Below are positions 23,820 through 41,143 of a DNA stretch of 64,000 bases, piece after piece. The DNA is taken from the NCBI GenBank assembly GCA_019119435.1, contig DWWZ01000154.1:4987-68986 (forward strand). The letters are read 5' to 3'. Each line of letters begins with the position of its first letter. The first letter of the stretch is position 1. Below the pieces are notes generated by a model, which made no database searches, had not been told where the DNA came from, and was given only the letters and a program-made list of their open reading frames with translations. Both the position numbers and the translations under genes were made by a program. Source of the stretch: Candidatus Butyricicoccus avicola. GTDB taxonomy: Bacteria > Bacillota > Clostridia > Oscillospirales > Butyricicoccaceae.

Positions 23820-23883
23820 AAAGGCATATATTTATACTTTATCATTTGCACTTTACCTCGCAAAACGAAGACGAAATTTCCTT

Positions 23884-24074
23884 CAGATAGAGGCGCGGTG
23901 TTCATCAGTATCGTCTGGGAGGGGCCGCAACCCCATTGACCACACGAAAAAGGGGCCACCGCCGAAGGTTTGCCCGGCGTTGCGGCGCGGCGGCCTGGAC
24001 GGCCCGGAAAAGATCCCGCCGTCTGTCACTGCATAGCACCCGATCAAAACGCTGTGCCGGTGGAGCGCTGTCTT
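23884..24074 (+). ncRNA. Lysine riboswitch (L-box) aptamer
   Basis: AGAGGCGC start, AGTA, GCCGAA, CTGTCA, GGAGCGCT end; P1 agatag/ctgtct; upstream of lysine biosynthesis genes; CCGGTT/AACCGG+T7 terminator at 24122-24144. Confidence 0.92.
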
Positions 24075-24202
24075 GGATGGTTGGGACAAGAATCCTGTCT
24101 TTCCATTATAGTGAGTCTATGCCGGTTTTTCAACCGGTTTTTTTCATATCTGCCTGGAATTTCGTCCAAACGGGGAACGGTGACAGGAGGCTCTCTAAAA
24201 TC

Positions 24203-26205: not shown

Positions 26206-26967
26206 ATGCCTAAAATCGTCCTCTCCGGATGCAACGGCCGCATGGGCCGTGTCATCACCGAAATCTGTGCCGCAAAGCCCGACATGCAGATCGTCGCAGG
26301 CTTTGACCTAAACACCCAGGCACTGGCCGATTATCCGGTCTTTGCGCACCCGGCAGATTATACCGGCCCGTGCGACGTGGTCATCGACTTTTCCAACGCC
26401 GCGCTGACCGAAGACCTGCTGGCCTACTGCAAGGCCCGCAAGCTGCCCGTGGTCATCTGCACGACCGGCCACTCGCCCGAGCAGGTCGCCATGATTGAGG
26501 CGGCCTCCAAGGAGATCCCGGTATTCCGCTCCGGCAATATGTCGGTCGGCATCAACCTGATGATGGATCTGCTCAGAAAGTGCGCGTCCGTCCTGGGCGC
26601 CGACTACAATGTCGAGGTCGTCGAGGCGCACCACAACCAAAAGCTGGACGCGCCGAGCGGCACCGCCCTCATGCTGGCCGATGCCGTATCCGAATCCCTG
26701 CCCTATGAGGCGGCGTACGTCTATGACCGCCACGAGCGCCGCGAAAAGCGCCCGCCGCACGAGATCGGCATCCACTCAATCCGCGGCGGCACCATCGTCG
26801 GCGAGCACAGCGTACTGTTCTGCGGCCGTGATGAGGTCATCGAGATCAAGCACTCTGCGCTCTCGCGCGAGGTCTTTGCCACCGGAGCCGTGCAGGCCGC
26901 GGCCTTCCTGGCCGGCAAAACCGCCCCGGGATTGTATAATATGAGCCACGTCATTGCTGCACAGTAA
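26206..26967 (+). CDS. dapB: 4-hydroxy-tetrahydrodipicolinate reductase
   Basis: GCNGRMG, EAHHNQKLDAPSGTA, RGGTIVGEH. Confidence 0.97.
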   Translation: MPKIVLSGCNGRMGRVITEICAAKPDMQIVAGFDLNTQALADYPVFAHPADYTGPCDVVIDFSNAALTEDLLAYCKARKLPVVICTTGHSPEQVAMIEAASKEIPVFRSGNMSVGINLMMDLLRKCASVLGADYNVEVVEAHHNQKLDAPSGTALMLADAVSESLPYEAAYVYDRHERREKRPPHEIGIHSIRGGTIVGEHSVLFCGRDEVIEIKHSALSREVFATGAVQAAAFLAGKTAPGLYNMSHVIAAQ

Positions 26968-27159: not shown

Positions 27160-28446
27160 ATGGACAGTAGCCACATAGTCCCGATCATCGCCATCGTCCT
27201 GCTCATCGTCTTTTCGGCCTATTTCTCGGCCACCGAGACTGCATTCTCTTCGCTCAACCGCATCCGCCTGAAGAACATGGCGTCGGATGGCAATAAGCGT
27301 GCTCAGCTCACGCTCAAGATTGCAGACCAGTACGACCGCCTGCTGTCAACCATCCTGATCGGCAACAATATCGTAAATATCTGCTCCACGTCCATCGCCA
27401 CCGTGGTCTTCATCGCCTGGCTTGGCCCCTCGATCGGCCCCACCGCCTCGACCGTTATCATGACCATTGTGGTCCTGATCTTCGGCGAGATCTCACCCAA
27501 GAGCCTGGCAAAGGAATCGCCCGAACGCTTTGCCATGTTCTCGGCCCCCATCCTCCGCATCTTTCTGACCATCCTCGCGCCGCTCAACTTTTTGTTCAGC
27601 CAGTGGAAAAGGCTGCTGTCGCACTTCTTCCCCTCTGACGCAGAGACCGGCATCACCGAGGACGAACTGCTGACGATCGTGGACGAAGCGACGAGCGACG
27701 GTACCTTTGACGAGCAGGAGAGCGATCTCATCCGCTCAGCCATCGAATTTAACGACCTGGACGTCATCGACGTATTCACGCCCCGCGTCTCGGTCTGTGG
27801 CATCGAGGACACGGCAACGAACGACGAGATCAGCGCGGTATTCCGTGAGACCGGCTTTTCCCGTCTGCCGGTCTACCACGACAACATCGACCACATCGTT
27901 GGCATCCTGCATGAGAAGGACTTCTATAACCATGTGATCGCCGAACAGCAACCGGTTGCAGCCGTGCTGCAAGCGCCGCTGTATATCGCCCCCTCGCTGC
28001 AGATCTCTGACCTGCTCCGCCTGTTCCAGAAGAGCCAGACCCATCTGGCGATCATCACGGACGAATATGGCGGCACGGCGGGTATCGTCACGATGGAGGA
28101 TATCTTGGAAGAGCTGGTCGGCGAGATCTGGGATGAACACGATAAGGTGGAGCCTGAGATCGAGCAGCTATCCGAGACCGTATACCGCGTGCGCGGTGAG
28201 ACCCGTCTGTCCAAGCTGTTTGACGAGCTCGACCTGGACACGCCGGAAACCGATCTGACAACGGTCAACGGCTGGCTGATGTCACAGCTCAACACCACCC
28301 ATGAAAACCAGGTCTTCTCCTACGATGGCCTGCGCTTTACCATTGAGCAGACCAATGGGCGCTATATCGCTTTTGTCCGCGTCGAGCGCGTCGCAGAAGA
28401 CGCGCCGGAGGCCGACGAATCGCACAGCATGGAGGAAGACAAATAA
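27160..28446 (+). CDS. HlyC/CorC (CNNM-CBS) family transporter
   Basis: FSATETAFSS, TILIGNNIVN, FGEISPKS, CBS pair, DEYGGTAGIVTMEDILEELVGEI. Confidence 0.93.
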   Translation: MDSSHIVPIIAIVLLIVFSAYFSATETAFSSLNRIRLKNMASDGNKRAQLTLKIADQYDRLLSTILIGNNIVNICSTSIATVVFIAWLGPSIGPTASTVIMTIVVLIFGEISPKSLAKESPERFAMFSAPILRIFLTILAPLNFLFSQWKRLLSHFFPSDAETGITEDELLTIVDEATSDGTFDEQESDLIRSAIEFNDLDVIDVFTPRVSVCGIEDTATNDEISAVFRETGFSRLPVYHDNIDHIVGILHEKDFYNHVIAEQQPVAAVLQAPLYIAPSLQISDLLRLFQKSQTHLAIITDEYGGTAGIVTMEDILEELVGEIWDEHDKVEPEIEQLSETVYRVRGETRLSKLFDELDLDTPETDLTTVNGWLMSQLNTTHENQVFSYDGLRFTIEQTNGRYIAFVRVERVAEDAPEADESHSMEEDK

Positions 28447-28456
28447 ACCTACACAA

Positions 28457-28500
28457 AAAGAGACAGCCCCCGGCCTATCGGCGCCAGGGGCTGTTTTTTG
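28457..28500. terminator. Bidirectional terminator
   Basis: ACAGCCCC/GGGGCTGT stem with A- and T-runs between convergent genes. Confidence 0.75.
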
Positions 28501-29004
28501 TCATTTGAGCAGGGCAAAGAGGATACTATCGGTCAGCCTGCCGTGCTTGTATACACGGTTGCAGAAATAGCCCTCCCGCTGAAAACGATTCTTTTCCAAG
28601 ACCCGGATGGAACCCGGATTGCTCGCGAGGACCTCGGCCTCGATGCGCACAAGGGGCGTTTCCCGGAATGCCTGCGCGCACAGGTCATGCACCACCTGGG
28701 TGGCAATCCCCCGGTTCCAGTAGGCCTCTCCCAGCCAGAACCCGAGCGCGGCGTTTTTGCAGTAAACGTCGTCGCCAAAGTCCAGCGTAACACCGCCGGC
28801 CACCGTGCCATCGACCTCGATCGCACGCACCCAGGCGCGGTCGCAGTGGGTGCGCAGAGCGCGGTTGATAAAGAACTGTGCGTCCTCCTGGGTGTAGGGA
28901 TAGGGGAAGGTATTGCGCAGATTGTCCGATACCCGGCGGTTGTTTGCCTGCGCGGCCAATGCGGCCGCATCCTGTGGCTTCCAAGTGCGAATGTTGACTG
29001 TCAT
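28501..29004 (-). CDS. RimJ/RimL-type GNAT N-acetyltransferase
   Basis: FPYPYT, LGFWLGEAYWNRGIAT, NPGSIRVLEKN; start MTVNI after GAGGGA. Confidence 0.88.
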   Translation of the reverse strand: MTVNIRTWKPQDAAALAAQANNRRVSDNLRNTFPYPYTQEDAQFFINRALRTHCDRAWVRAIEVDGTVAGGVTLDFGDDVYCKNAALGFWLGEAYWNRGIATQVVHDLCAQAFRETPLVRIEAEVLASNPGSIRVLEKNRFQREGYFCNRVYKHGRLTDSILFALLK

Positions 29005-29053
29005 TTTGAAATCCCTCATTTCCGAAAACGTCTGGTGACGGGATGAGGGGATC

Positions 29054-29375
29054 AAAAAAGCCCTCGTCCCTTGACTACTGTGCAAGGACGAGAGCAGACG
29101 GCTGCTTCGTGTTACCACCTTCACTTTATCCGCACCTCACGGATACGGACCTCTGCGGGTACGGAGCGGCGCCAAAAGGCGGACGGCTCGATATCCAGGC
29201 GCTGTAATGGGCACACCCATCGTATCCTCAGTGCATCCGCGGGCGGTGCAGGTCGGTACGCGGCTCCAAGGCCATTTTCCGGACGCGCCTCCAGTCCCCG
29301 TTCCACCAAAGCCGGGGCTCTCTGCGCTTTCAGCCGCGCCGTACTTTCCTTTTCATTGCCTTTTCTATCTTTTCA
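29054..29375 (-). ncRNA. T-box leader, predicted Met (AUG) specifier
   Basis: Minus strand: TTGACA-17-TATACT promoter (29414-29386); Stem I with AAGTA, AGAGA, GGTGGAA; specifier loop GAAAAUGG; T-box AAGGTGGTAACACG (29121-29108); terminator plus T run. Confidence 0.9.
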
Positions 29376-29424
29376 GATTGTTTTTAGTATAACACAGGCG
29401 CGCAATTTTGTCAACCACAGGTCC

Positions 29425-30321
29425 TCACACGCCCTGCCCGTCAAACGCCGGGATAAAGCTCTCGCTGATGGACTCCCCATCTTGCAGGAAACCTGCAAGG
29501 CCCAGGTCCGAAAACAAATGCACGGCGTCCTCATACTCGCTGTCCGTGATCTTCCGATCGAGCTCGGGATAGGCCTCCATGCCAAACGGGGTGTACTGCC
29601 GCATAAGGCTGACCAGGATGCGGTCGCCAAAGTGTTCGGCCAAATACCGCAGGACCTGCGCCGTATCCCCTGCCAGGCCGGGCAGCATGAGATGGCGCAC
29701 GACCGTGCCGCGCGTCATCAGGCCGGCGGCGTCAAACTGCGGTGCCCCGGTCTGCCGCACCATCTCTGTGAGCGCCTCGCGGGCAACGTCCGGATAGTCG
29801 GGCGCGCCCGAGTACAGGCCGGCATAGTAGGTGCTGTAATACTTGAAATCGGGCAGATAGATATCGACCAGTCCGTCCAGCAGGCGCAGGGTTTCGACCG
29901 TCTCGTAGCCGCCGCAATTGTACACCACCGGGATGCGCAGGCCGTCCCGCCGCGCCATGCGCAGCGCGCGGCAGACCGAGGGGGCATAGTGCGAGGCGGT
30001 GACAAGGTTAATGTTGTGTGCGCCCTGCGCCTGCAGTTCCAGAAAAACCGCGGCCAGGCGCGCCGGTGTGACCGGGCGGCCGCGCACGGCCGTCCGGCGG
30101 CTGATCGTGCGGTTTTGGCAAAAGACGCAGCCCAGCGTGCAGTGTGTAAAAAATACCGCACCCGACCCGCGTGTGCCCGAAATCGGCGGCTCCTCCCAGG
30201 CGTGCAGCGCAGCCCGGCCGACGTACATCGTATCCGACGCGCCGCAGAACCCGCGTGCGCCCGCTGTGCGGTCCACACCACAGGCGCGCGGGCACAGTGT
30301 ACAGTGCTGATAGGCCTGCAT
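29425..30321 (-). CDS. Radical SAM protein, PflX-like
   Basis: CTLCPRACG, EEPPISG..GSG.VFF, CTLGCVFCQN, VRHLMLPG. Confidence 0.88.
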   Translation of the reverse strand: MQAYQHCTLCPRACGVDRTAGARGFCGASDTMYVGRAALHAWEEPPISGTRGSGAVFFTHCTLGCVFCQNRTISRRTAVRGRPVTPARLAAVFLELQAQGAHNINLVTASHYAPSVCRALRMARRDGLRIPVVYNCGGYETVETLRLLDGLVDIYLPDFKYYSTYYAGLYSGAPDYPDVAREALTEMVRQTGAPQFDAAGLMTRGTVVRHLMLPGLAGDTAQVLRYLAEHFGDRILVSLMRQYTPFGMEAYPELDRKITDSEYEDAVHLFSDLGLAGFLQDGESISESFIPAFDGQGV

Positions 30322-30490
30322 AGACGACTCCCCTTTCCTCTCTGTGTCGTGTCTGCCTCCCATCTTACCACATCTCCCGTCGTTTTACAACGGGTGGCCA
30401 GGATCGTCGGGCAAAGCGGCTTTGACGAACGGGGACGGACGTAGTACAATGGAAAGGAACGGAACCGAACCCCCAAGGGAGGAATTTTCT

Positions 30491-31537
30491 ATGCGATATG
30501 TCATCTCGGAATATGCGCACGACGCTTGCCCGCTGCTGCGCGATTTCCTGATCTACCTGACCACCATCCGCGGCAAATCACCCAAGACGGCGTTTGAATA
30601 CTTTCTCGACCTGCGCCTGTTTTTGCGCTTCATCAAAATTAATCGCGGTCTTGCGCCGCGCGACGTCCCGCTCGAAGAGATCTCCATCTTCGATGTGGAC
30701 GAGGCTCTGCTGCGCACCATACGCCTCAAGGATATCTATGACTTCCTGACCTATATCGGCGAGCAGCGCCCGACCCAGGCCAACAGCCCCTCGACCGACT
30801 ACGGCCTGTCCCCCATCTCCCGCGCGCGCAAGGTATCGTCCCTGCGCTCCTTCTTCCGCTACCTGACCGACAAGGTCCATGTGCTCGACTCTAACCCGGC
30901 TGGCGGCCTGGAGCTGCCAGCAAAGCCCAAGGAGCTGCCGCGCTACCTGACGACTGACGACTCCATCCACCTGCTCGAGAGCATTGAGGGCAAGTACGCC
31001 GAGCGGGATTACTGCATCTTGACACTGTTTTTGAACTGCGGCCTGCGCGTATCCGAGCTGGTCGGCCTGAACCTGACTGACGTGCGCGACGGCACGCTGC
31101 GCGTACGCGGCAAGGGCAACAAAGAGCGTATGCTGTACCTCAACGAGGCGTGCGAGGACGCCATCGCCCAGTATCTGCCCACGCGCATCACGCCGCATGA
31201 GGCCGACCGCAACGCCCTATTCGTCAGCCGCAACCGCAACCGCATCAACACCCAGACGGTCAAGTGGCTGGTCAAAAAGTACATCACGGCCGCCGGGCTC
31301 GACCCGACCAAATATTCTGCCCACAAGCTGCGCCACACGGCGGCCACACTCATGTATCAAAACGGCGTGGATATCCGCACCCTGCAAAGCGTGCTGGGGC
31401 ACGCACGGGTGGACACCACCATGATCTACACGCACATTGCCGACCAGCATGTGCGCGAAGCCTCCGAGCGCAATCCGCTGGCGCACATGACGCGCGGCAA
31501 GCTTGCTGCAAAAAAAGAGGAATCTGAGGATTCGTGA
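30491..31537 (+). CDS. Tyrosine recombinase, XerC/XerS-like
   Basis: ARKVSSLRSFF, GLRVSEL, GKGNKER, HKLRHT, LGH, TMIYTH; TTGACG-17-TACAAT promoter. Confidence 0.9.
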   Translation: MRYVISEYAHDACPLLRDFLIYLTTIRGKSPKTAFEYFLDLRLFLRFIKINRGLAPRDVPLEEISIFDVDEALLRTIRLKDIYDFLTYIGEQRPTQANSPSTDYGLSPISRARKVSSLRSFFRYLTDKVHVLDSNPAGGLELPAKPKELPRYLTTDDSIHLLESIEGKYAERDYCILTLFLNCGLRVSELVGLNLTDVRDGTLRVRGKGNKERMLYLNEACEDAIAQYLPTRITPHEADRNALFVSRNRNRINTQTVKWLVKKYITAAGLDPTKYSAHKLRHTAATLMYQNGVDIRTLQSVLGHARVDTTMIYTHIADQHVREASERNPLAHMTRGKLAAKKEESEDS

Positions 31538-41067: not shown

Positions 41068-41143
41068 CCGGGTGTAGCGCAGCTGGTAGCGTGCTTGACT
41101 GGGGGTCAAGAGGCCGCAGGTTCAAGTCCTGTCACTCGGACCA
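41068..41143 (+). tRNA. tRNA-Pro(GGG)
   Basis: Acceptor CCGGGTG/CACTCGG, anticodon arm CTTGA-CTGGGGG-TCAAG, GGTTCAAGTCC T-arm, encoded CCA; TTGACA promoter upstream. Confidence 0.97.

Follow-up and report, generated by a model that had tools for sequence, protein, structure and literature searches.

T-box riboswitches nearly always control an aminoacyl-tRNA synthetase (aaRS), a biosynthetic gene or a transporter, a rule that is used to annotate unknown genes, and the products of the controlled genes normally help the cognate tRNA to become charged again. The described leader closest to the one analysed here is the Met T-box (RF00230) of the methionyl-tRNA synthetase (MetRS) gene metG in the Butyricicoccaceae, which has the same leader lineage and architecture: a Stem I with an AUG specifier, a UGGU bulge and a terminator/antiterminator switch. 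GNAT acetyltransferase genes are also on record behind T-boxes. SAG0442 and SAK_0545 of S. agalactiae lie behind a Val T-box (Wels et al. 2008, supplementary file 1, PMC2494555), likewise as the first gene after the leader, and their position has never been explained. On the side of the enzyme, RimL and the C-terminal domain of MccE are of the same Pfam family type as the acetyltransferase studied here. Both detoxify a broad range of aminoacyl-adenylate analogues by acetylation of the alpha-amine, which relieves aaRS inhibition (PMC3817062, PMC4964394). In MccE, residues 453 and 466 stack on the adenine, and S553 and E572 form the catalytic pair (PMC4964394). Small GNATs such as PAT/Bar, MnaT/YncA (methionine sulfoximine, sulfone) and ArsN detoxify amino-acid antimetabolites by N-acetylation, like the role proposed below. 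B. subtilis YdaF (1nsl) and a B. anthracis GNAT (3fbu), both uncharacterised RimL-like enzymes, share the length and fold of our protein; to our knowledge, no T-box linkage of YdaF or 3fbu has been reported.

This work describes a Met T-box in front of a stand-alone GNAT gene in Candidatus Butyricicoccus avicola. The window, i.e. the whole stretch of DNA that was analysed, comprises 64,000 nucleotides of contig DWWZ01000154.1. There is nothing unusual about the regulatory element itself, unlike its cargo and the traceable inheritance of a synthetase's leader. In contrast to the metG Met T-box, the window leader has a GNAT gene as its only cargo, and the metG of the window genome is not under a T-box. 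SAG0442 and SAK_0545 head operons of 3-4 genes behind a Val specifier, whereas the window GNAT gene is monocistronic, predicted to be Met-specific, conserved across genera and traceable to metG. Our literature search, the coverage of which was incomplete, returned no description or explanation of either a Met T-box with a stand-alone GNAT or a GNAT-metG operon; the T-box-GNAT pairs found in the literature were listings in supplementary tables only.

The window assembly is an 80%-complete genome of 1.9 Mb with seven T-boxes. Genera of the Butyricicoccaceae are labeled g1 (Butyricicoccus) and g2, g3, g5, g15 and g19 (other genera). A model built from 17 leaders, R1, was searched against 151 genomes of the family; the RNAalifold consensus behind R1 is not the canonical T-box fold, and R1 served as a sequence/structure probe only. 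The features of the locus are listed in Table 1.

Table 1. Features of the T-box-GNAT locus and its flanks, numbered by window position
Feature	Position	Strand	Remarks
Sigma-70-type promoter of the leader, TTGACA-17-(TG)TATACT	29386..29414	-	11/12 positions match the consensus; expectation from shuffles of the region, 0.5 such sites
T-box leader: Stem I (K-turn, specifier loop, AG bulge, distal GGUGGAA loop), Stem II/III region, antiterminator	29081..29365	-	RF00230 match and alignment with 16 orthologous leaders
Specifier codon AUG (predicted Met)	29273..29275	-	Next come purine G29272 and the closing-helix strand CCUU
T-box sequence AGGUGGUAAC	29111..29120	-	UGGU bulge predicted to pair with the tRNA NCCA end, U opposite A73
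Leader terminator hairpin CUCUCGUCCUUG / CAAGGGACGAGGG and U6	29054..29094	-	Mutually exclusive with the antiterminator
GNAT N-acetyltransferase gene P0001	28501..29004	-	167 aa, PF13302; GAGGGA ribosome-binding site upstream
Bidirectional intrinsic terminator	28463..28494	.	Ends both the GNAT gene and the convergent CNNM gene
Convergent CNNM/CBS/CorC_HlyC transporter gene	27160..28446	+	Flank, outside the unit; synteny within Butyricicoccus
Radical-SAM gene	29425..30363	-	Upstream flank; position beside T-box-GNAT conserved in g1 and g5

A preliminary description of this DNA, made from its letters alone, had reported a promoter, a complete T-box and a single GNAT gene as its cargo, and each of these was recovered. 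The promoter is near-consensus and carries a TG extension, the full RF00230 model is matched with the specifier, bulge and terminator/antiterminator all located, and one GNAT ORF under the leader is followed by a terminator and the convergent CNNM/CorC gene. The Infernal search that the description had proposed yielded a full-length match with AUG at the specifier. In a permissive scan, the leader scored 77.6 bits against the covariance model (E 4.1e-17, model positions 1-219), and its E-value in the whole-genome search was 3.1e-17. The score is below the Rfam gathering score of 93 bits because about 50 bases are inserted in the Stem II region, and a scan of the whole window at that threshold did not list the leader; for the orthologous leaders that precede the same GNAT gene, scores reach 95.6-110 bits. 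The leader terminator hairpin has 12-13 bp followed by U6 and is present in the MFE and centroid structures alike. The 5' arm of this hairpin and the 3' side of the antiterminator overlap, CUCGUCCUU being common to both. Taken together, leader, promoter and terminator very probably form a transcription-attenuating T-box that reads uncharged tRNA-Met, as predicted from the sequence.

Some other elements of the window were annotated along the way. A lysine riboswitch (23880-24078, plus strand; RF00168, 82.2 bits, E 6e-20) is followed on its 3' side by a row of plus-strand genes that includes dapB (26206-26967; TIGR00036, E 1e-60), an ordinary Lys-controlled dap operon. A tRNA gene is located at 41068-41140 (plus strand; RF00005, 63.2 bits). 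Divergent from the radical-SAM gene lies a gene for a XerC/XerD-like tyrosine recombinase (30344-31537, plus strand), and such a recombinase adjoins the locus in B. pullicaecorum too (89-93% identity, L042 and L043).

The predicted Met assignment of the leader rests on the specifier register and on the presence of metG behind the leader in relatives, the latter being the strongest evidence. The covariance-model alignment places AUG with high posterior probability in a specifier loop GGAAA-AUG-G that is closed by AAGG/CCUU. GAAAAUGG is invariant in 17/17 orthologous leaders, which come from four genera; at the closing pair, ten of them have G-C, five A-U and two an A.C mismatch. This invariance and the G-C/A-U closing pair fix the register to AUG and exclude UGG, in line with the Met specifier that had been proposed from the window alone. 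As AAUGG holds all three triplets, a shifted register with UGG (Trp) or AAU (Asn) as specifier was considered, in which case the leader would sense a different tRNA, and the trpS-type leader of the window genome indeed uses UGGU as well. This shifted register is scarcely credible and was rejected: the covariance alignment sets AUG, the position that follows UGG takes part in a pair that covaries in five leaders, the real Trp leaders of the genome read GAA-UGG-A, both tRNA-Trp and tRNA-Asn carry G73, and metG is found under the same leader in relatives. The preliminary description had further argued for Met from the pairing of UGGU with an A73 discriminator. One half of that argument stands, as both elongator-type CAU tRNAs of the window genome carry A73. 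The other half does not: UGGU fails to separate Met from Trp here because the trpS-type leader has it too, despite the G73 of tRNA-Trp, so that the discriminator is weakly informative for Met.

Homologues of the GNAT are encoded by 46/164 genomes of the family; the one of Butyricicoccus pullicaecorum DSM 23266 is 75% identical to the window GNAT. A T-box was detected upstream of the gene in 16/19 of the first loci scanned and in 1/11 of the further family loci. Conservation of the pairing among relatives, which the preliminary description had left to be checked, was found in 12 assemblies of three genera (g1, g5 and g19); in a thirteenth (G076, g5), a strong leader is present, the contig ends 143 nt after it and the position of the GNAT gene lies beyond. 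In these three genera the arrangement is stand-alone: the T-box is followed by the GNAT gene and then by a terminator or unrelated genes. With G076 as the one exception, strong leader matches coincide exactly with GNAT orthologues (4/11 g1, 5/13 g5 and 4/5 g19 genomes). In g1 and g5, the order radical-SAM gene, T-box, GNAT gene is syntenic, with radical-SAM genes that are 65% identical. Six Butyricicoccus genomes have the radical-SAM gene without the unit; other genes follow it there, and no remnants of the leader or the GNAT gene were found.

The second arrangement is seen in g3, where the T-box precedes, in this order, an alpha/beta hydrolase gene, the GNAT gene, a CPBP protease gene and metG (PF09334, E 1e-112), the hydrolase and protease genes occurring in some species only. 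GNAT-metG operons are limited to a subset of g3. In most g3 species the leader directly precedes metG at about 100 nt, with no GNAT gene in between, and a Met leader heads metG in g2 too. In all five genomes checked for it, metG is a single-copy gene. In g1, g5 and g19 it is far from any T-box (none of the four single metG genes checked there has one), and the window genome's own metG has no T-box within 1.5 kb upstream. A SAM-I riboswitch as alternative Met control was not found in the 80%-complete window assembly. Outside the two T-box-linked GNAT clades, no T-box was present near GNAT homologues in 11 family loci (40-44% identity), and such a leader was found beside 0/24 GNAT loci from other families of the order and 0/7 from other phyla.

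A tree of the leaders separates all the Met leaders of the family, as one group, from the Leu, Trp and Phe leaders of the window genome. Those of g3 make up a single tight clade, with GNAT-containing operons interspersed among GNAT-free ones, and the leaders of g1, g5 and g19 form a clade that follows the genera. The window leader is a member of the Met leader set of the Butyricicoccaceae, in which metG stands under the orthologous leader in g3 with or without an inserted GNAT gene; in Butyricicoccus, g5 and g19, leader and GNAT gene make up an independent accessory unit. The protein tree resolves two T-box-linked GNAT groups, each well supported (0.999), of which the g3 group clusters with T-box-free family homologues (0.92) and not with the g1/g5/g19 group. 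The two linked clades are not sisters, which would fit two separate origins of the linkage or its loss on several occasions. The preliminary description had offered replacement of an original met gene as an alternative and had named metG behind this leader in relatives, as the sign of a recent replacement, among the findings that would refute its own reading. metG is indeed found there (g3 and g2), but it reflects the operon history above: a recent replacement is unsupported because the stand-alone unit is conserved, syntenic in two genera and gained or lost as a whole, with an invariant specifier and T-box sequence.

The GNAT gene might have been inserted by chance into the metG leader operon and have kept the leader after metG moved, as a passenger or relic with an unrelated function. 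The leader does belong to the metG lineage, the GNAT gene comes and goes between leader and metG among g3 species (MetRS 92-99% identical to the reference), and 8% of T-boxes are reported to lie before genes whose function is unknown or unrelated (Wels et al. 2008, PMC2494555). We nevertheless regard a chance passenger as quite unlikely. In three genera the leader is intact, its specifier, T-box sequence and terminator are invariant and the GNAT gene is its only cargo; leader and GNAT gene are never apart in g1, g5 and g19; and the locus is syntenic across two genera. Furthermore, the non-sister position of the linked clades hints at repeated recruitment, and another PF13302 GNAT is encoded inside a Met-biosynthesis T-box operon.

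P0001 matches PF13302 (Acetyltransf_3, RimJ/RimL type) with 80.5 bits against a gathering score of 25.4 (E 2.5e-22). The equivalog models were missed by a wide margin, with 23.6 bits against a cut-off of 184 for RimL (NF007539, L7/L12 serine acetyltransferase) and 22.1 bits against 190 for RimJ (NF008072, S5 alanine acetyltransferase); by these scores, the GNAT is not RimL or RimJ itself. ESM Atlas and NCBIfam return generic GNAT names only. The solved structures closest by sequence are YdaF (1nsl, E 6e-8) and 3fbu (E 1e-7), at 22-26% identity. The AF2 model (pLDDT 96.2) has GNAT topology and is matched best by the MccE C-terminal domain (Z 22.7, rmsd 1.9 A over 165 residues, 18% identity), with which RimL and 3fbu tie (both Z 22.6), followed by YdaF (21.6) and RimJ (20.7). 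The MccE and RimL matches together span rmsd 1.8-1.9 A over 164-165 residues at 18-21% identity. The fold match is generic for PF13302, as SpeG, RimJ and AAC(6') score just 2-3 Z units lower. PAT/ArsN-type acetyltransferases appear at Z ~18.5, below RimL and MccE; in sequence, the Acetyltransf_4 family of PAT/Bar, MnaT/YncA and ArsN matches P0001 weakly (E 1e-7). In the homologue alignment, S132 is nearly invariant and E144 invariant, which makes them candidates for a Ser/Glu pair of the MccE type.

With PF13302 being the RimJ/RimL family, RimL and RimJ among the best weak equivalog matches, RimL and YdaF among the top structural matches and the gene linked to a translation gene, metG, P0001 could be an N-alpha-acetyltransferase of proteins, as RimL and RimJ are. 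It would then act on a ribosomal protein, MetRS or a translation factor and tune translation when tRNA-Met charging falls. The preliminary description had listed a ribosomal protein among the conceivable substrates. We consider such a role unlikely: the equivalog scores are far under their cut-offs, the distribution is patchy even inside one genus, Met-specific control of such an enzyme has no obvious reason, and TetR-coupled relatives are unusual for a housekeeping ribosome modifier. These relatives are T-box-free family homologues from two genera that are directly followed by a TetR regulator gene (L025:915-1478, minus strand; L030:1963-2532, plus strand). Of two other T-box-free homologues, one follows an SdpI/YfhL-like gene (L029) and one adjoins a HIT-domain gene (L034). 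TetR, SdpI-like, HIT and CPBP/Abi neighbours are the usual company of small-molecule resistance genes. Each is a weak hint; together, this gene context suggests small-molecule or antimicrobial defence and not housekeeping ribosome modification.

A tRNA substrate had also been mentioned in the preliminary description, and some GNATs are toxins that acetylate aminoacyl-tRNAs, as is the case for PacT (PMC9561280). The PacT homologues 8gxf and 8gxk, deposited as 'GCN5 family' and 'RimJ/RimL family', are weak sequence matches of P0001 (E 1e-6 to 3e-5). A toxin of the AtaT, TacT or PacT type would acetylate Met-tRNA and, after a drop in charging, deepen growth arrest. We judge this highly improbable, given that no antitoxin ORF lies beside the GNAT gene (there is no small ORF between leader and GNAT gene or after the latter, where the terminator follows directly), that the gene is co-transcribed upstream of the essential metG in g3, and that positive feedback without an antidote would be lethal.

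The reading that we favour is that the Met T-box induces a GNAT which inactivates a methionine antimetabolite or an inhibitor of MetRS; taken as a whole it is a tentative proposal, with a chance somewhat short of even. A MetRS inhibitor, or methionine starvation, would raise the level of uncharged tRNA-Met, which would cause read-through of the leader and synthesis of the GNAT. The enzyme would N-acetylate, and so inactivate, a small-molecule competitor at MetRS, be it a methionine antimetabolite or a mimic of methionyl-adenylate, and once the inhibitor is acetylated, charging of tRNA-Met would recover. A MetRS competitor would be the most likely substrate because T-box cargo normally restores charging and the fold resembles RimL and MccE, whose relief of aaRS inhibition would fit the regulatory logic. 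For the substrate class by itself, for which we lean on T-box regulon logic and the fold, the proposal is possible but a shade more tentative still. The accessory, patchy distribution of the leader-GNAT unit counts in favour of detoxification. Against it, P0001 is 18-21% identical to MccE and RimL, and its fold is generic for PF13302. The sub-threshold RF00230 score of the window leader and the non-sister position of the two linked GNAT clades also weigh against the proposal. P0001 misses the RimL equivalog cut-off and has no microcin-like cluster nearby. MccE and RimL are expressed from an antibiotic-synthesis operon or constitutively, whereas the GNAT gene is controlled by a T-box. We know of no well-established natural adenylate mimic directed at MetRS in the gut.

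A third arrangement with a distant paralogue leaves room for a metabolic by-product as the substrate instead. In g15 (L092, G101, minus strand 1-2602), a Met T-box with GAAC-AUG-G is followed by an aspartokinase gene, a gene for a 190-aa PF13302 GNAT and a Cys_Met_Meta_PP enzyme gene, with MetA just downstream on the same strand. Since T-box cargo is often biosynthetic and this GNAT gene of the related family lies between aspartokinase and the Cys/Met PLP enzyme, P0001 might be an enzyme of methionine biosynthesis or salvage that acylates homoserine or a pathway intermediate or by-product such as homocysteine; the preliminary description had likewise thought of a methionine precursor or analogue. 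A metabolic enzyme of this kind is very unlikely. MetA (PF04204) is encoded in the window genome and in 4/5 relatives tested, the g15 operon included, and two Cys_Met_Meta_PP enzymes are present as well; there is therefore no acyltransferase gap for the GNAT to fill, and its candidacy as a substitute homoserine O-acyltransferase was rejected. The g15 GNAT, moreover, is only 33% identical to P0001, over residues 58-145.

Returning to the inactivation of a MetRS inhibitor, its boldest version is that the T-box would serve as a sensor of aaRS poisoning. MetRS blocked by a methionyl-adenylate mimic or antimetabolite would trigger a dedicated RimL/MccE-like GNAT that destroys the inhibitor, in a circuit that senses the state of the target, was recruited from the metG leader and was possibly assembled twice in the family. 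We put this forward as a doubtful extension. If the GNAT does remove a MetRS inhibitor or methionine antimetabolite, this would be a new logic of inducible resistance in which the state of the drug target is sensed, and a hint that such compounds circulate in the gut. Independently of the substrate, the comparison of genomes links an uncharacterised RimL/MccE-like acetyltransferase to the charging of tRNA-Met through three arrangements, namely alone, with metG and, for the distant paralogue, inside a met biosynthesis operon, and the case documents that a riboswitch can outlive its first cargo. It also offers a cultivable organism, B. pullicaecorum DSM 23266, in which the search for the substrate is a well-defined problem.

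Two further observations concern the Met leaders of the family in general. The alpha/beta hydrolase between the Met T-box and GNAT-metG has 248 aa (Hydrolase_4 / Abhydrolase_6; L020:758-1501, plus strand, also L024 and L026) and occurs in three g3 species, while the CPBP/Rce1-like intramembrane protease between GNAT and metG is encoded at L023; both count as additional, variable cargo of the metG leader. The Met leaders of a second class, with GAAC/GAAG-AUG-G-UCU (L088-L107), are absent from the window genome, in the 80%-complete assembly of which the leader before the GNAT gene is the only Met-type leader. This second class heads metNIQ-type ABC transporter genes (L089), the g15 operon with the aspartokinase gene described above and a gene of the Na+/H+-antiporter family (L088 and L107).
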